64,000 nt of DNA. It comes from Escherichia phage vB_EcoS_HASG4. Numbering within the stretch: the first letter of the stretch is position 1; every line of letters begins with the position of its first letter. The stretch lies in the sequence record NC_100331.1; one strand, written 5' to 3'. The notes below the pieces were generated by a model, which saw nothing but the letters and a program-made list of their open reading frames with translations, made no database searches and was not told the origin of the DNA. Position numbers and translations under genes: made by a program. Below are positions 12,363-47,717 of the stretch, piece by piece.

Positions 12363-13064
12363 TCAAATTTTGATTTTTTCGACCATAGCTGCAACACAAT
12401 AGCTCTCAACTAAGGCATCGAATGCTGGGTCATGTTTAACTGGGTAGATTCCATAACGAATGGTGTCCATCTTCTCCATCTTAGCTTTTGCCCAGCTAAT
12501 CCCCTCTGCTTCTAGGTCTTTGTAGCTATAACCAGCCTGCATCCAGAGATTGCGGAGAGATCGAACATTACCCAAATTCCAGAATTTCCACGGAATTATT
12601 TCCTCATTGGTTCCGGCATGGAAAGTGTTTGCAGAGTAGATAGTCATATCAAACTCTGGGCCATTGCCATAATACAAAGCATTCTCACCTAGAGCCAACT
12701 CCATAATATTTTGAGCCATAGAGTAAGCAGCATAGTTGGAGCCTAGTTTATTAGTACAATGATGTTTACCGTTTTGGAATGCAATCAGCTTTGGATTACG
12801 CTCGTTCATAGCTTCCATAATGTGGAGAGCAGATGGGCTATTTTTAGCTTGATCCATCCAGAATGCTAGAGTAGACGCTGTAACTTTAGCACCAGAATTA
12901 AACTGATCTTGCACATCCAAAGTAACAAATACCAGATCAGGGTCTTTATCAATTCCATGCATAGCCACAAAAGCGAAAGAAGGCATTGCGATATGAGTAG
13001 TACCACAATCTCCTGGAGTTCCTAGAGATTCAATATCTAGCATACCAAATGGTTTTACTTTCAT
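12363..13064 (-). CDS. putative DnaQ-like (DEDD) 3'-5' exonuclease
   Basis: N-terminal MLDIESLGT resembles exo motif I (DxE); weaker motifs downstream; assignment tentative. Confidence 0.45.
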   Translation of the reverse strand: MKVKPFGMLDIESLGTPGDCGTTHIAMPSFAFVAMHGIDKDPDLVFVTLDVQDQFNSGAKVTASTLAFWMDQAKNSPSALHIMEAMNERNPKLIAFQNGKHHCTNKLGSNYAAYSMAQNIMELALGENALYYGNGPEFDMTIYSANTFHAGTNEEIIPWKFWNLGNVRSLRNLWMQAGYSYKDLEAEGISWAKAKMEKMDTIRYGIYPVKHDPAFDALVESYCVAAMVEKIKI

Positions 13065-13371: not shown

Positions 13372-13587
13372 TTACTCGCCCAGCAGTTTAAGAATATTTT
13401 CCTTAATAGTTTGGGCAGATTTTTCGCTCTTATTGGTTTCAGCCAGTTTTAGAGCAAGTTCTTCCTGCTGTTTCTGAATATCAGCAGCAATTTTCTGATC
13501 AGCCTCAATACGAGCTTGAAGTTCATCAGTAATAGTAGTAAAGGAAGCAACGATTTCAGTAACGGAACGTGGTTTCTTAGAGAACAT
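13372..13587 (-). CDS. hypothetical coiled-coil protein (71 aa)
   Basis: ORF-track ORF flanked by GGGGCTTTCGCCCC hairpins. Confidence 0.45.
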   Translation of the reverse strand: MFSKKPRSVTEIVASFTTITDELQARIEADQKIAADIQKQQEELALKLAETNKSEKSAQTIKENILKLLGE

Positions 13588-14200: not shown

Positions 14201-14229
14201 ATTATACGAGAATTTGAAGCGTTTAGCAA
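14201..14229 (-). promoter_or_regulatory. early promoter (TTGCTA-N17-TATAAT on minus strand)
   Basis: Plus strand ATTATA at 14201-14206 and TAGCAA at 14224-14229. Confidence 0.55.
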
Positions 14230-14237
14230 ATGAATTT

Positions 14238-14687
14238 TTAATTTATTAACTGTAAGCTTCTTTTAATTTCAGACCTTACCTGCATCAAAAGAACTCCTAA
14301 AGTATTATCCCCGATGCCCCGGCAAACACCCCAATATGTATCCCCCCAGGTATTTCCTTCAATCAAAGTTGCATTTTCTGTTGCTAACAGTTTGTCTCTC
14401 AAATCAGGGATTGCAAACTTTAACCGTAAAAGCTCTAGCATTACATCATCTTTTACCTTATCCCAGTCAGAGCGTAGAATTAATTTACGTCCTCTACGTT
14501 TAGCAACTCCTGCATTTAGGGAGCGTAGTACATGAGCTACATCATCTTTTTGGTCGGATTTCATAGCCTGAAAAGCATGTTCTACAGTATCAGCATGCCA
14601 TATTTCATTTAGATATTCGAAAGTAATTGGTGATAAATAAAAGTTAGATAAGAAACTATAAGCACCTTTAAATTCAGTAATCTTCAT
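14238..14687 (-). CDS. NADAR-family (YbiA-like, DUF1768) protein
   Basis: FLSNFY...TVEHAFQAMK...W..VK...M...L..KF...TWGDTYWG...G.NTLG.LLMQVR matches the NADAR signature pattern. Confidence 0.75.
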   Translation of the reverse strand: MKITEFKGAYSFLSNFYLSPITFEYLNEIWHADTVEHAFQAMKSDQKDDVAHVLRSLNAGVAKRRGRKLILRSDWDKVKDDVMLELLRLKFAIPDLRDKLLATENATLIEGNTWGDTYWGVCRGIGDNTLGVLLMQVRSEIKRSLQLIN

Positions 14688-14968
14688 TTTTTACGCCCCG
14701 CATCTTTAGCCTCTTCGGCTGTATAGATATACTGATAAGCCCCTTTGGAGTAGGCTGGAGCAGTACACATTTTCTTACGCTCAATCTCTTCTTGAGCTTT
14801 TCTTTCGCGTTCAGCTAATTCTTCATCCAGATAGATTAAACGTTGTTCTGGAGGAGGTGGAAGACGTGTTTCTGGCTCACCAATATTAGCCTTTCTTATT
14901 TGACGAGGTGATTGTGCACGTTTTCTCAACGGTTTAAATCCTAATGAATTTGAGTTATAAATTCGCAT
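14684..14968 (-). CDS. hypothetical protein (94 aa)
   Basis: ORF-track ORF with promoter at 14996-15024. Confidence 0.45.
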   Translation of the reverse strand: MRIYNSNSLGFKPLRKRAQSPRQIRKANIGEPETRLPPPPEQRLIYLDEELAERERKAQEEIERKKMCTAPAYSKGAYQYIYTAEEAKDAGRKK

Positions 14969-14995
14969 AAAGCCCTCCTCACTTTCAATACGAAT

Positions 14996-15024
14996 ATTAT
15001 ACTAAATTAGAGGGCTTTAAGCAA
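14996..15024 (-). promoter_or_regulatory. early promoter (TTGCTT-N17-TATAAT on minus strand)
   Basis: Plus strand ATTATA at 14996-15001 and AAGCAA at 15019-15024. Confidence 0.5.
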
Positions 15025-15044: not shown

Positions 15045-15521
15045 TCACATCTCAGCAAGTTCTTGCTCAGTAATAACTGTATTACATAGTGCATCTACAG
15101 CTTCATTACCACTAATACCAGAATGTCCTTTAACCTTAATAAAGGTAGGATTAGTATTATGAAAGTTGATATACTGCTGTGTTAATTTAAATGCTTCCTG
15201 CCAAAGTTCTAGATTAAGAGGAACTTCACCATCTGCTTTCTTCCAGCCTTTCCTTTGCCAAGAAAACATCCAACTTTCCATACCGTTTTTGCAATAAGCA
15301 GAATCAGTATAGATAACAATTGGTCTATTATCTTTTTTAACTGACCAACGTAGAGCCTCTACAATAGCCGTGAGTTCCATCTCATTATTTGTAGTTTTAG
15401 GACTATAACCAGATTTAGAACCTAAACGATCATCGTTATCATCATAGACAATAAATCCCCAAGCACCTGGACCTGGGTTAGACTTACAAGCACCATCTGT
15501 GTAAATGTGGAAAACCGACAT
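15045..15521 (-). CDS. rnhA: ribonuclease HI
   Basis: IYTDGAC..NPGPGAWG and downstream TNNEMELTA / YTDS motifs typical of RNase H. Confidence 0.85.
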   Translation of the reverse strand: MSVFHIYTDGACKSNPGPGAWGFIVYDDNDDRLGSKSGYSPKTTNNEMELTAIVEALRWSVKKDNRPIVIYTDSAYCKNGMESWMFSWQRKGWKKADGEVPLNLELWQEAFKLTQQYINFHNTNPTFIKVKGHSGISGNEAVDALCNTVITEQELAEM

Positions 15522-15790
15522 TATTTGCTCCAGTCAATTTCAAGCCAAAAACCTTCACGCTGCTCATACTTAGCTTCTACGACATAGCCTAGTTTAGTGA
15601 GTCGTTGCATAACGCTGTTTCTGGCGCTTTCTGAATATTCAGTTAACCCCTGAATATGGCAGTTAAATTCTTTTTCTTTGATTGCTTTATCAATCTCTAC
15701 GGCAATAAGTGACTCTAGATTAAGTACTTCCTGTTTAATAACAGCAATAGTATTTTGTTTTGCTTCTAAAGCAGATAAAAGAATAGACAT
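15521..15790 (-). CDS. hypothetical protein (89 aa)
   Basis: ORF-track ORF; stop/start junction with RNase H gene. Confidence 0.45.
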   Translation of the reverse strand: MSILLSALEAKQNTIAVIKQEVLNLESLIAVEIDKAIKEKEFNCHIQGLTEYSESARNSVMQRLTKLGYVVEAKYEQREGFWLEIDWSK

Positions 15791-16044
15791 TAGTTTTCGC
15801 CTTCTATAATTACCCTAGTCGCTGGAGGAATTGGCGGCATAGGAGGAATACATGGATGACCTCTCTGTGCATCATTTGGTACTCTTGGCGGTTCAGGTCT
15901 AGTTGCCTTTAATTCCTTTTCTAGGAATTGTTCTAACGCCCGTTCTACAAAATGATCGAAAGGTAAGTGATAATACTGAGACAGAGCTAAGAACCTACGT
16001 TCTTGACTTTGTGTTAAATAAACTTTCTTTTTAAAGAGTCCCAT
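15790..16044 (-). CDS. hypothetical Pro-rich protein (about 84 aa)
   Basis: Start moved to internal ATG (about 16044, RBS CGGAGA) because the annotated upstream start would overlap the promoter -10 at 16069-16074. Confidence 0.45.
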   Translation of the reverse strand: MGLFKKKVYLTQSQERRFLALSQYYHLPFDHFVERALEQFLEKELKATRPEPPRVPNDAQRGHPCIPPMPPIPPATRVIIEGEN

Positions 16045-16068
16045 AGTTGTCTCCGATTTATAAAATAT

Positions 16069-16097
16069 ATTATATCTAAATTTCACTCAGTAAGCAA
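16069..16097 (-). promoter_or_regulatory. early promoter (TTGCTT-N17-TATAAT on minus strand)
   Basis: Plus strand ATTATA at 16069-16074 and AAGCAA at 16092-16097. Confidence 0.5.
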
Positions 16098-25105: not shown

Positions 25106-25295
25106 TGGCTTAAATGCTGCACTGGAAAATGCATTGATGCAGCAGTGGGAGGCTGGATATAAGGATGGGGTTGAATCTTGTGCAAAAATAATGGATATTA
25201 TGGCTAATTCTGTAGTTGGGAAAGCCCATCCAGAAGTATCTGATATACTCCATAACCTTAGTAAAAACTTCAGAGAACAGGTGAAAAATGCGTAG
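25074..25295 (+). CDS. hypothetical protein (73 aa)
   Basis: ORF-track ORF, translationally coupled to neighbours. Confidence 0.45.
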   Translation: MAFSKPMLPDNGLNAALENALMQQWEAGYKDGVESCAKIMDIMANSVVGKAHPEVSDILHNLSKNFREQVKNA

Positions 25296-26109
25296 ATTAA
25301 TTATTATTAGCGGTGCAGGTTTGAGTGTTGAAAGTGGTGTACGAGCCTTCCGTACTGATACTGCTAGTGGTAAAGCATTGTGGGATGATTATGACTTAGA
25401 AGAGGTATGTAATATTCATGCCTTTCGTGGTAATTTTTATCATAAAACTCATATGTTTTACAACAAGCGTCGTGAAGAGCTAAAAACTGTTGAACCCAAT
25501 CTTGCACACTTGCGTATTGGTGAATGGTATAAGAAATATCCAGGTCAAGTAGTAAACTTGACTACCAACGTTGATGACCTTATTGAGCGTGCTGGAGTAC
25601 CAAAAGAAGACATACTCCATATTCATGGGTACCTGAAAGAAATTATCGTAGAGCACGCATTCGACCAGACACATGATATTATTGATATTGGATATAGTTC
25701 TATTGACCCCGATGACTTTGACTGGGTTAAACCTAATGTAATTTTCTTTGGGGAACATGCTCCAGCGTACAAAACAATGTATGAGATTTTTGATGGCATT
25801 ACCAGTCAAGATATGATCATTGTGGTTGGTTGCTCTAACCAAGTAATTAACTTCTACTGGGAATTATTTCCTGTTCTTAATCTGACTGCTGCAAAACTTA
25901 TGGTAGTTAACTACTATGATAGTGCCCTAGCAGCGGAACCAGGCTATCAAGGTATGACTCGTAGTGAGATGTACCAGTTGGAAGAACGTGGGATCCCTTA
26001 CTGGAGTAAAGGTGCGGTGGATGCTTTTAGTGACCCGGGTTTTATTGCTCGTGTAGAAGCTCATCTAGAGGGTAGACCTTATATGCCGGGGAAACAAATA
26101 TGTCCATAA
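25288..26109 (+). CDS. Sir2-like (sirtuin-fold) NAD-utilising protein lacking the Zn-ribbon Cys motifs
   Basis: GAGLSVESGVRAFR (sirtuin GAG.S.ESG..FR), TTNVDDL..AG, catalytic HG (LHIHGY), VIFFGE and VVGCS motifs; no CxxC pairs. Confidence 0.7.
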   Translation: MRRLIIISGAGLSVESGVRAFRTDTASGKALWDDYDLEEVCNIHAFRGNFYHKTHMFYNKRREELKTVEPNLAHLRIGEWYKKYPGQVVNLTTNVDDLIERAGVPKEDILHIHGYLKEIIVEHAFDQTHDIIDIGYSSIDPDDFDWVKPNVIFFGEHAPAYKTMYEIFDGITSQDMIIVVGCSNQVINFYWELFPVLNLTAAKLMVVNYYDSALAAEPGYQGMTRSEMYQLEERGIPYWSKGAVDAFSDPGFIARVEAHLEGRPYMPGKQICP

Positions 26110-33988: not shown

Positions 33989-34960
33989 ATGACCAATGTA
34001 AAAGAATTTATTAAACGCTGTCAAGAAGCATATTATCAGGGTATGTCTTTAATCTCTGATGAGGAGTATGATTGCCTGGTAAAACGCTTCCCGTTAGAAG
34101 AAGAGATCGGGCCTAAGGGCGATATTCCACATCTGTATCGTATGTATTCTTTACAGAAAGTTTATTATAATCGTGGAGATAAACCCCCATTTAACCCATT
34201 AGGTCAGGTAGAAACTGACAAGTTAGATGGTTGTGCGATTTCTCTATTATATATTAATGGCGAATTTGTTCAAGCACTAACTCGTGGTAATGGTATTCTA
34301 GGGAATGATGTCACAAGCAACGTAAGACTGCTGAATATCCCTAAAAAGATTTCCCAAAAAGTACCAACTCAAATCACTGGTGAAGTTCTAATTACAAAAG
34401 AAGTAGAAAATAAACGTAACTTTGCCTCTGGTGCTATTAACCTCAAAGATAGCGATGATTTCGTACAACGTATCGGGGAAGGCGGTTTAATCTTCGTTGC
34501 ATACGGTATCCAGTGTTCTGCCGAATCTGTAGGTATTACAGAATCGTATTTAAAAGATATGCTTTGGCTAGAGAATGAGAACTTCTTAACAGTTGTTAAT
34601 GTGCGTTCCTTCTTTAAATGGATTCCGACTGACGGTAAAGTTGTTCGTATTAATGACAACAACAAATTCTTCCGTGAGGGCTGGACAAATAAATTCCCTC
34701 GTGGAGCATTCGCCATTAAAGAGGATGAAGAAGGCGAAATTACAACTCTTACTAAAGTTGAGTGGCAGGTAGGGGCTTCTGGTAAAGTAACTCCAGTTGG
34801 CTATTTCGAACCGGTAATTATTGATGATGCTACAATTGTTAAAGCGACTCTTAATAACGTTGATTATATTAACTCTCTCGATCTAGAGATCGGTTGCCAG
34901 ATTCGAGTGATTCGTGCTGGTGGTGTAATCCCGTGTATAGTAGAGCGAGTATACGATTAA
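33989..34960 (+). CDS. NAD-dependent DNA ligase, N-terminal fragment (adenylation and OB domains)
   Basis: LISDEEYD near N-terminus and adenylation motif TDKLDGCAISLLY (KxDG), typical of LigA-type ligases. Confidence 0.75.
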   Translation: MTNVKEFIKRCQEAYYQGMSLISDEEYDCLVKRFPLEEEIGPKGDIPHLYRMYSLQKVYYNRGDKPPFNPLGQVETDKLDGCAISLLYINGEFVQALTRGNGILGNDVTSNVRLLNIPKKISQKVPTQITGEVLITKEVENKRNFASGAINLKDSDDFVQRIGEGGLIFVAYGIQCSAESVGITESYLKDMLWLENENFLTVVNVRSFFKWIPTDGKVVRINDNNKFFREGWTNKFPRGAFAIKEDEEGEITTLTKVEWQVGASGKVTPVGYFEPVIIDDATIVKATLNNVDYINSLDLEIGCQIRVIRAGGVIPCIVERVYD

Positions 34961-35162: not shown

Positions 35163-35942
35163 ATGAAAATCGAAATTCCAACACAATGTCCCTCTTGTGG
35201 TTCTAAGCTAGATCTTGTCAACGGACAATTATTCTGTCGTAATAAGTCCAACTGTCCAGCGCAATCAAGCAAGTTAATTGAGAACTTCTGTTCAAAAATG
35301 AAGTTAAAGGGCTTTGGCCCAAAAACTATTGAGAAGCTGGAGCTGACGAAGATTTCAGAACTATTTTACCTAACCGAAGAAGATTTGGTTAGAGCCGTGG
35401 GTAGCAAGGTTGCCGCTAAGTTAATTAGCGAATTAAATACTAAAGTTCGCGGAGACATTGACTTTGGTTCAGTTCTCGGTTCTTTAGGAATCCCTCTAAT
35501 TGGAGAAGTTGCAGCAAAGAAACTATCCCAAAATTGCACTAGCTTCCATGATGTGAAGGCTGACGGCAAGGCTGGAGAAAATTACAAAGCCTGGCTAAAT
35601 TCCCCACAAGGCAAGGATGTTATTGAACTACCGTGGAAATTTTCAACTGGTGTTAAGGGCACTAAAGCTGACGTCATCATTACAGATGAATTAGTTGCCC
35701 AGCCAAATGGAATCGCGGTATGTATTACCGGATCTTTGCAAGATTTTGCAAATCGAACGGATGCAACAAACTATTTAGAAGGTCTAGGATATACGGTTAA
35801 GAAATCCGTTACCAAAGACGTCAAATACCTAATCTGTGAGGATGAATCGAAGCGTTCTTCCTCATCTTATAAGAAAGCCGAAACGAATGGGATAGAAATC
35901 CTGTCGATTAAAGAACTATTGGAGAAAAATAATAATGTCTAA
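35163..35942 (+). CDS. NAD-dependent DNA ligase, C-terminal fragment (Zn finger, HhH, BRCT-like)
   Basis: CPSCGSKLDLVNGQLFCRNKSNCPAQ Zn-finger followed by helix-hairpin-helix-like GIPLIGEVAAKKL and a C-terminal BRCT-like region. Confidence 0.7.
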   Translation: MKIEIPTQCPSCGSKLDLVNGQLFCRNKSNCPAQSSKLIENFCSKMKLKGFGPKTIEKLELTKISELFYLTEEDLVRAVGSKVAAKLISELNTKVRGDIDFGSVLGSLGIPLIGEVAAKKLSQNCTSFHDVKADGKAGENYKAWLNSPQGKDVIELPWKFSTGVKGTKADVIITDELVAQPNGIAVCITGSLQDFANRTDATNYLEGLGYTVKKSVTKDVKYLICEDESKRSSSSYKKAETNGIEILSIKELLEKNNNV

Positions 35943-44920: not shown

Positions 44921-45898
44921 ATGAGAATATTATTTAGTGCTGATCATCATATCAAACTAGGACAAGATAAAGTTCCAAAGGAATGGCAGAAGCGTCGTTT
45001 CCTGATGCTAGGAGAACGGTTAAATGATATATTCCATAATCATAACTGTGATCTTCATATTGCTGGTGGTGATATTCTTGATGTTGCCGACCCGTCGTCA
45101 GAAGAAATAGAACTGCTTGAACAGTTCATGTCAAGACTTGACCACCCAGGTAAAATCTTTACTGGAAATCATGAAATGTTAACTAAAACGATTTCATGTC
45201 TATATCATTATGCAGGAGTTATTAATAAGGTAACGAGTGGTAAGTGGGAAGTAATTACCAAACCATATCGTTCCCCTGAATTTGATATTGTTCCGTATGA
45301 TGAGATCCATAAATCCAAATGGAAACCGTCTGAATCAAAACTATGTTTCACGCATGTTCGTGGTGAAATCCCTCCACATGTAAAACCAGAAATTGATCTA
45401 ACTAAGTATAACTGTTATGATACTGTAATTGCTGGCGATTTACATTCTTATACTAATAGCCAGACTATCGGATCTACTAGACTTCTCTACCCAGGGTCTC
45501 CATTAACTACAACGTTCCATAGAGAACGCACAAAAGGTACAAATGGTTGCTTTATCGTTGATACCGACACATTAAAAGTAGAATGGATTGAACTAGGTGA
45601 TTTACCACAACTGATTCGTAAAACAATCGGAGCCGGTGAAGAGATGGAACCTAGTGATTATGATCGTGTAGTCTATGAAGTTACTGGTGACGTTGTTCAA
45701 TTAAAGTCTATCAAAGACTCTGATTTATTAGATAAGAAGATTAACCATCGAGTTACTAAAGACGCTAAGTTAAATCTTGTTGATCTTGATATGTTAGGTG
45801 AACTTGAACTTTACTTCCGTGAAGTCGAGAAGCTATCTCAAGGCGACATTGATAGAATCTTGGCTAGAGCTGCGAAATATGTCAAAGATTACAATTAA
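44921..45898 (+). CDS. SbcD/Mre11-like nuclease subunit
   Basis: Metallophosphatase motifs LFSADHH, GGDILD, GNHE. Confidence 0.8.
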   Translation: MRILFSADHHIKLGQDKVPKEWQKRRFLMLGERLNDIFHNHNCDLHIAGGDILDVADPSSEEIELLEQFMSRLDHPGKIFTGNHEMLTKTISCLYHYAGVINKVTSGKWEVITKPYRSPEFDIVPYDEIHKSKWKPSESKLCFTHVRGEIPPHVKPEIDLTKYNCYDTVIAGDLHSYTNSQTIGSTRLLYPGSPLTTTFHRERTKGTNGCFIVDTDTLKVEWIELGDLPQLIRKTIGAGEEMEPSDYDRVVYEVTGDVVQLKSIKDSDLLDKKINHRVTKDAKLNLVDLDMLGELELYFREVEKLSQGDIDRILARAAKYVKDYN

Positions 45899-47717
45899 GA
45901 CACTAAAATTTAGTAACGTTATGTCTTACGGTAAGGACATCGTAATTCATTTCGATAAGAATCCAGTTACTCAACTAATTGGTGGCAATGGGCTAGGGAA
46001 ATCCACCATCGCTACTGTTATCGAGGAATTGTTTTATAACAAGAACTCACGTGGTATTAAGAAGGATGCTCTATTCTCTTGGAATGCCCCTAAGAAAGAA
46101 TATGATATGCACGCTTATTTCTCGAAAGATGATGATGAGTATGAGCTGCATAAAGTAGTTAAGTCAACTGCTAAAGTAACGTTGATTAAGAATGGGGAAG
46201 ATATTAGTGGACATACGGCAACCCAAACATACAAGATGATTGAAGAGATTATGGGTGGTGACTTTCAAACATTCACCAAACTGATTTATCAATCAGTGGG
46301 TTCCAACCTAGATTTTCTAAAAGCAACAGATGCAACACGTAAGGCTTTTCTTGTTAATTTGTTCAATCAAGAACAATACAAAGAAATGTCGGAAACTGTT
46401 AAGGCTGACCGTAAAGAAATAGCAAATACCTTAAATAATTTGCAGGGCCAAATGGCTGTAATTACGAAAATTCTTAATGGAAAAAATAATCTAGGAACTT
46501 TGCAGGAACCTGTAGAAATACCGGAGTTTGATGAAGAGCCATTAGCACAAGAACTTACTGAATCGAAAATTAAGGCGGCATTAGCCAAGTCTCAAGAGGC
46601 TAATATTACTAAGTTGCGTAATTTGGACAAAGCTGTACAAGTTGCCGAACAATCTTTCGAACCTTTCAAAAATTTGCCCGCGCCCACCGACCAAAATGAA
46701 GAGATCTCAAGTGTTACACGTGACCTAACGATTGTGACCTCACGTGCGAGCGAAGTTAAGAAACGTTATCAGAAGTTCAAGCAAGAGGCTTCAAATACTG
46801 AATGCCCTACTTGCGGTACTCATCTGGATACAACTGCTGCTCAAAAAGCAATGGATATGGCTAGAATAGAATATGATCCTTTGTTCAAAGAGAAGCAATC
46901 TCTTGAAGCTAAGCTAGAACAGTTGAAGAAAGAACAACTTGAGTACGTTGCGTATACTAGAGCAAAGGATGCTTTGGATAAAGCAGTGGTAGCTAGAGAC
47001 GAGTTCAAAAATTCAATGAGTGATGCTTCTTTTGAAGAACTCAATGTGCAAATCCTACAGGTGCAAATCCGACAATTAGAACAGGAAATCGCTGATGGCC
47101 GCTCTAAGGTTGCAATTGCTAAAGAGCATAATGCAAATGTCGAATTAGCCAATGCAAAATATAAAGCGAAACTAGAACAGATTGAGAAAGCTGAGGCAGA
47201 AATGTCTGAGATTACTTCCAAACTGGATGAGGTATCAGAAGCTGTTGCTGATCTCGATATTCTGATTGCTGCTTTGAAAAATCTGGTGGGATATAAACTA
47301 GAGCATAGTGTGAAAGTATTTGAAGAACTAATTAATAAATACCTTTCTATTATGACTGGTGGTAAATTTGCACTTGGATTTGAACTTGATGAAACAAAAT
47401 TACAAGTAGTAATCTTCAATGATGGAAACCGTACCAGTATGGAGAATTGCTCTACTGGTCAGCAAAGTCGAATCAACTTAGCAACTCTGTTAGCTATTCG
47501 AATGCTACTAACATCTATTAGTAAAGTTAATATTAATCTTCTATTCCTTGATGAAGTAATTAGCTTTATTGATACAAAAGGACTTGATACTCTAGTTGAA
47601 TTATTAAATGAGGAAGAAAGCCTAAATTCTATCATTGTTTCTCACGGGCATACGCATCCATTAGCCCATAAGATTACTGTTAAAAAAGATGCAGAAGGAT
47701 TTTCCTACTTAGAATAA
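45879..47717 (+). CDS. SbcC/Rad50-like ATPase subunit
   Basis: Start at MSKITIKTLKF; Walker A GGNGLGKST, long coiled-coil, C-terminal LLFLDEV (Walker B). Confidence 0.8.
   Translation: MSKITIKTLKFSNVMSYGKDIVIHFDKNPVTQLIGGNGLGKSTIATVIEELFYNKNSRGIKKDALFSWNAPKKEYDMHAYFSKDDDEYELHKVVKSTAKVTLIKNGEDISGHTATQTYKMIEEIMGGDFQTFTKLIYQSVGSNLDFLKATDATRKAFLVNLFNQEQYKEMSETVKADRKEIANTLNNLQGQMAVITKILNGKNNLGTLQEPVEIPEFDEEPLAQELTESKIKAALAKSQEANITKLRNLDKAVQVAEQSFEPFKNLPAPTDQNEEISSVTRDLTIVTSRASEVKKRYQKFKQEASNTECPTCGTHLDTTAAQKAMDMARIEYDPLFKEKQSLEAKLEQLKKEQLEYVAYTRAKDALDKAVVARDEFKNSMSDASFEELNVQILQVQIRQLEQEIADGRSKVAIAKEHNANVELANAKYKAKLEQIEKAEAEMSEITSKLDEVSEAVADLDILIAALKNLVGYKLEHSVKVFEELINKYLSIMTGGKFALGFELDETKLQVVIFNDGNRTSMENCSTGQQSRINLATLLAIRMLLTSISKVNINLLFLDEVISFIDTKGLDTLVELLNEEESLNSIIVSHGHTHPLAHKITVKKDAEGFSYLE

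Follow-up and report, generated by a model that had tools for sequence, protein, structure and literature searches.

The window analysed in this work is a stretch of 64,000 nucleotides from Escherichia phage vB_EcoS_HASG4 (NC_100331.1), and it carries on its minus strand an intact gene with an ATG start, here named adfN, whose product has 149 amino acids (Table 1). The original prediction had placed a 149-residue NADAR protein at this locus; its coordinates proved exact, and the match to the NADAR family is far above chance. The minus-strand block around the gene encodes RNase H, ThyA, DHFR, NrdAB and small ORFs without an assigned function, and corresponds to the early region of T5. No riboflavin (rib) genes were found around adfN in the window, and the gene is neither fused nor linked to ribA or ribD.

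The start codon of adfN overlaps the TGA stop codon of the preceding gene, orf94, in the sequence ATGA, so that both genes are probably cotranscribed and translationally coupled. The orf94 product is 90% identical to T5.090, and the differences are concentrated in the last ~15 residues, beside the insertion junction. A required functional link between adfN and orf94 was considered and rejected, as T5 keeps T5.090 without any NADAR. A promoter-like sequence occurs upstream of orf94, at the place where rnh and T5.090 of T5 flank an annotated promoter, and it is followed by a ribosome-binding site. Judging from its sequence, it probably serves the orf94-adfN pair as an early promoter; it was missed in the consensus scan because its -35 hexamer matches at only three of six positions. 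Early expression of adfN would start from this upstream promoter. The promoter of the DUF7022 gene, equivalent to P-H207 of T5, begins 9 nt past the adfN stop codon and thereby delimits the inserted gene on its 3' side.

Table 1. Features of the adfN locus and other features of the window mentioned in the text
Feature	Position in window	Strand	Description
adfN	14238..14687	-	stand-alone NADAR-domain protein (reading frame, Pfam match, identity to the Bas32 protein, fold)
orf94	14684..14968	-	94-aa ORF of undefined role, T5.090 homologue, phrog_4593; upstream of adfN
Start/stop overlap	14684-14687		ATGA, orf94 stop and adfN start
Ribosome-binding site	14973-14980		GAGGAGGG, before orf94
Promoter-like site	14996..15024	-	TTGCTT-17 nt-TATAAT, recognised by eye; probable promoter of orf94-adfN
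Promoter-like site	14201..14229	-	TTGCTA-17 nt-TATAAT, found by scan; DUF7022 gene (T5.089 homologue), P-H207 of T5
71-aa ORF	13372-13587	-	phrog_2380
233-aa ORF	12363-13064	-	exonuclease matches
Two ORFs between RNase H and thyA	15521-16086	-	89 aa (phrog_13270) and 98 aa (phrog_17630, Pro-rich C-terminus)
Sir2-like gene	25288-26109	+	N-terminal GAGxS motif
NAD-dependent DNA ligase, subunits A and B	33989-34960 and 35163-35942	+	separate subunits
SbcC/Rad50-like nuclease gene	45798-47717	+	one continuous ORF
TTGC insertion	46670-46680		relative to MK373799.1
Single substitutions	15902 and 26334		relative to MK373799.1

The early region contains further variable genes. A further small accessory gene of this region lies two genes downstream of adfN, the 71-aa ORF, which is present in EASG3, Bas32, slur09, Lindwurm and KPP2018 and missing at the same junction in T5 and Bas33. 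EASG3 and HdH2 have the two ORFs between RNase H and thyA, Bas32 and T5 lack them, and Lindwurm has an HNH endonuclease there, indicating that the content of this slot is variable. The 233-aa protein is labelled 'putative metallopeptidase' in Bas32 and Bas33 and 'exonuclease' in T5. Since it matches the Pfam Rv2179c-like 3'-5' exoribonuclease family (E 3.4e-8) and an exonuclease family in PHROGs, the metallopeptidase label looks wrong. Elsewhere in the window, NAD-linked genes encode a Sir2-like protein and the two subunits of a NAD-dependent DNA ligase.

The adfN product is a NADAR-superfamily protein

The adfN product belongs to the NADAR superfamily. Residues 9-142 match the Pfam NADAR family PF08719 with an E-value of 2.3e-21 and 77.2 bits (gathering cut-off 35.1), and the protein also matches phrog_1017, a family without assigned function, with an E-value of 1.5e-44. 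The motifs FLSNFY, VEHAFQAMK, TYWG and LGVLLMQVR can be read in its sequence. The NADAR/YbiA signature proposed earlier is thus present, its FSNF element having in the actual sequence an extra Leu between Phe and Ser. Among solved structures, E. coli YbiA (PDB 2b3w) was matched with an E-value of 7e-15 by the single sequence and 1.5e-37 by a profile of 53 homologues, and the NADAR of the oomycete Phytophthora nicotianae (8bau) with 1e-6 and 8e-19, respectively. Solved NADARs other than these two were matched neither by the single sequence (E<=1) nor by the family profile (E<=0.01).

The AlphaFold2 model, obtained from the alignment of the 53 homologues, has a mean pLDDT of 97.2 and a pTM of 0.91. 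It contains helices at residues 35-41, 47-54, 59-67, 75-90, 94-101 and 129-148, together with small strands. In a Foldseek search, the model matched YbiA (TM 0.83) and the P. nicotianae NADAR:ADP-ribose complex (8bau; TM 0.78), with no further structure at E<=0.001. No DarG1 structure was matched by sequence, profile or Foldseek, and kinship of the adfN product to DarG1 is therefore at the superfamily level only.

All NCBIfam matches fell short of their cut-offs. The best NCBIfam match was TIGR02464, 'riboflavin biosynthesis intermediates N-glycosidase', at 65.4 bits, which is below its cut-off of 73.7. Membership in the NCBIfam family 'DS32_2 NADAR family anti-phage protein' was rejected, since the score was 43.6 bits against a cut-off of 240. 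PADLOC gave no DarG-type match for the adfN product, only a weak match to PDC-M42C (E 1e-6) and chance-level matches to Drt5.

Conservation of the active site

Schuller et al. 2023 (PMC11543638) have listed the residues contacting ADP-ribose in the crystal structure of the P. nicotianae NADAR (PnNADAR). We mapped them onto the adfN product through sequence and profile alignments, correcting for a +2 offset of the PDB chain. In this mapping the contacts E43, K50, K75, R79, D86, W89, E125, D130 and W133 all find a counterpart, at E36, K43, K63, R67, D74, W75, E110, D116 and W119, respectively, which are the predicted catalytic and ADP-ribose-binding residues of the protein. PnNADAR R93 corresponds to K79, and the adenine-stacking Y84 is replaced by R72. 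The P. nicotianae protein (189 aa) also differs from the adfN product in having extra N-terminal and internal insertions.

Six of the predicted residues (E36, K43, K63, E110, D116 and W119) are invariant in 53/53 homologues, which are 46-60% identical to the query, and the others are predominant (R67 in 41/53, D74 in 43/53 and W75 in 52/53). The invariance of these six residues is the signature of an enzyme. E36 and K43, within VEHAFQAMK, are the Glu and Lys of the E-x6-K motif, formed by E43 and K50 in PnNADAR and by E88 and K95 in E. coli C7 DarG1. In the latter, guanine de-ADP-ribosylation needs E88, K95 and D171, and K115 is required as well for rescue in vivo (PMC11543638). The third catalytic position varies among the subfamilies described, being Glu in YbiA-type and stand-alone NADARs, Asp in the DarT1-associated DarG1 and His in those of T4-like phages (PMC11543638; PMC11825919). 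The adfN product has a Glu, E110, at this position.

The adfN product is a one-residue variant of AdfN-Bas32

An anti-DarT factor NADAR (AdfN) has been described by Johannesman et al. 2025 (Nat Commun 16:1598, PMC11825919), who report that Bas32 and Bas33, presented as 'Markadamsvirinae closely related to T5', encode a NADAR named AdfN-Bas32. Bas32 is Escherichia phage IrisVonRoten (locus tags bas32_xxxx) and Bas33 is HildyBeyeler. When the family HMM was run on six-frame ORFs, bas32_0066 was the single NADAR in the complete Bas32 genome, and the window likewise gave a single match. As bas32_0066 is the only NADAR ORF in that genome, we equated it with the published AdfN-Bas32.

The adfN product and bas32_0066 are both 149 aa long, are encoded at syntenic loci and share 148 of the 149 residues. 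In both Tequintavirus genomes the gene lies between the upstream T5.090 homologue, whose stop codon it overlaps in the same ATGA, and the DUF7022 gene. The sole difference is I70 in the window against T70 in Bas32, and T70 is also found in Bas33, slur09, Lindwurm and KPP2018. Since position 70 is hypervariable among the 53 homologues (T, K, V, S, D, Q, P or E), this difference is unlikely to matter, and inactivation of the protein by I70 was rejected on the same grounds. The Bas32 and Bas33 NADARs are given as identical in PMC11825919, whereas in the deposited genomes (Bas32 locus extract 4238-4687 and Bas33 locus extract 1001-1450) they differ at two residues, A9T and E104K, and at 12 synonymous codons.

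According to Johannesman et al., AdfN-Bas32 neutralises the DarT1 toxin in uninfected E. coli, and its ectopic expression lets RB69, T5 and Bas25 regain full titre on a DarTG1 host, with no effect on DarTG2, which modifies thymidine (PMC11825919). The evidence set out there for AdfN-Bas32 is in vivo, and the explicit accounts of in vitro hydrolysis and of mutants in the catalytic site concern AdfN-T4 (PMC11825919).

adfN is an accessory gene of T5-like phages

The presence of adfN is patchy among T5-like phages, which makes it an accessory gene. T5 has the same flanking genes, and there the P-H207 promoter directly meets the end of T5.090 with no gene between them; the alignment of the window with T5 is identical up to window position ~14239 and then diverges. 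Copies with at least 95% nucleotide identity are found in 94 phage records, from T5-like phages of Salmonella, Escherichia, Shigella, Citrobacter and Klebsiella, and the flanking DUF7022 gene in 431-519 records. These counts indicate that about one fifth of T5-like phages carry the adfN cassette. No class of intermediate similarity was found, the next relatives being at most 60% identical and belonging to unrelated phages and metagenomes.

Pairwise comparisons of six T5-like orthologues gave 3-15 synonymous and 0-4 non-synonymous codon differences, an excess of synonymous changes that argues for purifying selection on adfN. A NADAR with 60% identity is encoded by Salmonella phage vB_SenS_UTK0009 (Epseptimavirus) between rnh and the T5.090 homologue (locus extract 2487-2936). 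The different slot of the UTK0009 gene points to a separate gain, so that the early region would have captured NADAR genes more than once and may be a local hot spot for anti-defence genes.

Database records of adfN and of the window

The DNA of adfN is identical to EASG3_00114 (QBQ81630.1, labelled 'hypothetical protein, DUF1768') in the record of EASG3, a T5-like Escherichia phage from duck dung (MK373799.1; Demerecviridae, Tequintavirus). Some 90 other T5-like phage records, from phages of Escherichia, Salmonella, Shigella, Citrobacter and Klebsiella, hold the gene at 96-100% nucleotide identity. In GenBank its copies are labelled 'hypothetical', 'swarming motility protein YbiA', 'GTP cyclohydrolase II' or 'N-glycosidase'.

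Over the ~57 kb compared, the window differs from MK373799.1 only by a handful of substitutions, single changes at two positions among them, and a 4-bp indel far from adfN (Table 1). With the inserted TTGC, the gene of an SbcC/Rad50-like recombination nuclease becomes one continuous ORF; the same nuclease is split in GenBank into two CDS, EASG3_00154 and EASG3_00155, probably by a sequencing frameshift.

Two short records (2-3.5 kb) of 'Listeria phage LM 4-14-1 / 4-11-1' (OR848833.1 and OR847649.1) contain a 98%-identical copy of adfN and are probably mislabelled or contaminant fragments. In Klebsiella phage KPP2018 (extract 410-925 and 130-345) and several Salmonella phage records, the annotations seem to be shifted by one gene: the DUF7022 gene, rather than the NADAR gene, bears the label 'swarming motility protein', and early ORFs of 71 or 52 aa that of 'tail length tape-measure protein'.

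Comparison with other NADAR proteins

The adfN product would work like DarG1, yet it is a member neither of the DarG1 subfamily nor of the T4 AdfN clade. With DarG1, the NADAR antitoxin of DarTG1 in E. coli C7 and Geobacter lovleyi (BC4488 subfamily), it shares the superfamily and, as predicted, hydrolysis of ADP-ribose from the N2 of guanine and neutralisation of DarT1. However, DarG1 is encoded beside DarT1, whereas the neighbours of adfN are the T5.090 and T5.089 (DUF7022) homologues, RNase H and ThyA, with no ART gene. DarG1 also has an N-terminal beta1-beta2-alpha1 extension, proposed to form a groove for ssDNA, which is absent from the adfN product. The alignment of the latter with the YbiA core begins at residue ~5-10, so that no space remains for such an extension. 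A further difference lies in the catalytic Asp of DarG1, D171 in E. coli C7, which is replaced by E110.

AdfN-T4 (T4 gp30.3) resembles the adfN product: both are stand-alone phage NADARs that lack the N-terminal extension, and the positions of E36 and K43 coincide. AdfN-T4 is described as countering DarTG1, and not DarTG2, through removal of ADP-ribose from guanine in DNA (PMC11825919). Nevertheless, the T4 clade has His where the adfN product has E110, and BLAST and PSI-BLAST searches seeded with AdfN-T4 are reported to miss the Bas32 type (PMC11825919). The same source states that AdfN-T4 depends on a T-even infection to neutralise DarT1, whereas the Bas32 type acts alone. AdfN-T4 and Bas32-type AdfN were gained independently. 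The position of the adfN product outside both the DarG1 and T4 clades agrees with the view expressed by Johannesman et al. that NADARs were co-opted by phages several times (PMC11825919).

The closest solved structure is E. coli YbiA, with 36% identity over the Foldseek alignment, a minimal core without extensions and the same Glu. A Glu at the position of PnNADAR E125 is the criterion given by de Souza & Aravind for the YbiA subfamily (PMC11543638); the adfN product has this Glu, although its TIGR02464 score does not reach the cut-off. YbiA hydrolyses guanine-ADP-ribose in vitro but gives cells no protection against DarT1, unlike AdfN-Bas32. The genes also differ in context, since ybiA is found with the LexA-controlled dinG-ybiB and adfN in a phage early operon.

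Function of the adfN product

Taken together, the data point with a probability of about 90% to the adfN product being a Bas32-type AdfN, a stand-alone ADP-ribosylglycohydrolase that counters DarTG1 and is made early by some T5-like phages. That the NADAR protein reverses DarT-type ADP-ribosylation of guanine as a counter-defence had been proposed in the original prediction, and the published phenotype of the 148/149-identical AdfN-Bas32 supports it. The scope of the proposal has to be narrowed, as it holds for DarTG1, which acts on guanine, and not for DarTG in general, given that AdfN-Bas32 is reported to give no rescue from DarTG2 (PMC11825919). The idea was thus right yet already known, the product being, by its sequence, a one-residue variant of a characterised protein. 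T5, which lacks adfN, is described as strongly restricted by DarTG1 and rescued by AdfN-Bas32 in trans (PMC11825919), which amounts to a natural knock-out and its complementation at a near-identical locus.

The following mechanism can be proposed. Once triggered in the host, DarTG1 acts through its toxin DarT1, which places ADP-ribose on guanine of the phage DNA, at N2, and stalls its replication. AdfN would grip the ADP-ribose at the adenine and pyrophosphate with K43, K63, R67, W75, D116 and W119, with E36 and E110 predicted to lie around the distal ribose. It would then hydrolyse the N-glycosidic bond between ribose and guanine, leaving unmodified DNA on which replication could go on. AdfN would in effect be an orphan antitoxin carried by the phage, and early expression would suit an enzyme that has to clean replicating DNA. 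Thymine-linked ADP-ribose would not be attacked, hence the lack of protection from DarTG2. Such a catalytic mechanism is what we infer for the Bas32-type clade, and the native phage would be expected to rely on adfN.

It is conceivable, though improbable, that the main targets of the enzyme are broader than, or other than, DarT1-modified DNA, such as ADP-ribosyl-cytidine, ADP-ribosylated RNA or soluble ADP-ribose immune signals, a reading that is compatible with the AdfN model. The action against DarTG1 would then be a single aspect of a more general eraser of ADP-ribose. NADAR/YbiA enzymes of the Glu type clear ADP-ribose from cytidine and RNA, an activity that DarG1 (Asp) and the T4 NADAR (His) lack (PMC12945103), and the adfN product carries the Glu, E110. 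It has also been suggested that phage NADARs may target low-molecular-weight (soluble) derivatives of ADP-ribose (Iyer et al. 2022), and Johannesman et al. speculate on other ADP-ribosylating defences (PMC11825919). However, no cytidine-ADP-ribosylating defence is known in enterobacteria, and AdfN-Bas32 is reported to have no effect on the products of DarT2 (PMC11825919). By analogy with the YbiA/NADAR-type Glu, it may still be suggested, tentatively and with more doubt than confidence, that T5-type AdfN is a broad-spectrum eraser that also acts on ADP-ribose in cytidine and RNA. If so, T5-like phages would be shielded from undiscovered ADP-ribosylating defences besides DarTG1.

The alternative offered in the original prediction, a housekeeping N-glycosidase of the YbiA type that destroys reactive intermediates of riboflavin biosynthesis to the metabolic gain of the phage, is poorly supported and in our view very unlikely. 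YbiA, from a family with a reported metabolic role, is the closest relative of known structure in both fold and sequence, TIGR02464 is the best NCBIfam match and E110 is the Glu that defines the YbiA subfamily. Nevertheless, the TIGR02464 score is below the cut-off, the neighbours are T5 early genes and those for RNase H, ThyA, DHFR and Nrd rather than riboflavin genes, the gene is dispensable and patchy among T5-like phages, and the near-identical AdfN-Bas32 has a demonstrated anti-DarT1 phenotype (PMC11825919). As YbiA itself removes guanine-ADP-ribose in vitro, similarity to YbiA is no argument against DNA de-ADP-ribosylation. A non-catalytic block, in which DarT1 is bound and occluded as by mimics of the AdfA/AdfB type, is the least credible reading: other anti-DarT factors do act by binding and the account of the Bas32-type protein in PMC11825919 describes no catalytic mutants, but the catalytic residues E36, K43 and E110 do not vary in the homologues, AdfN-T4 is reported to need E36 and K43 and not to associate stably with DarT1, and according to the authors enzymatic activity is required in these NADAR proteins (PMC11825919).

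The assignment of the adfN product as an enzyme that counters DarTG1 is conceptually nothing new beyond the work of Johannesman et al. 2025. Its practical value lies in correcting the annotation of ~90 copies that are now mislabelled or called 'hypothetical', since the EASG3 gene and its near-identical copies can be renamed adfN (anti-DarTG1). Moreover, the presence or absence of the 450-bp adfN cassette should predict the plating of T5-like phages on DarTG1 strains, which bears on their host range and on phage therapy.
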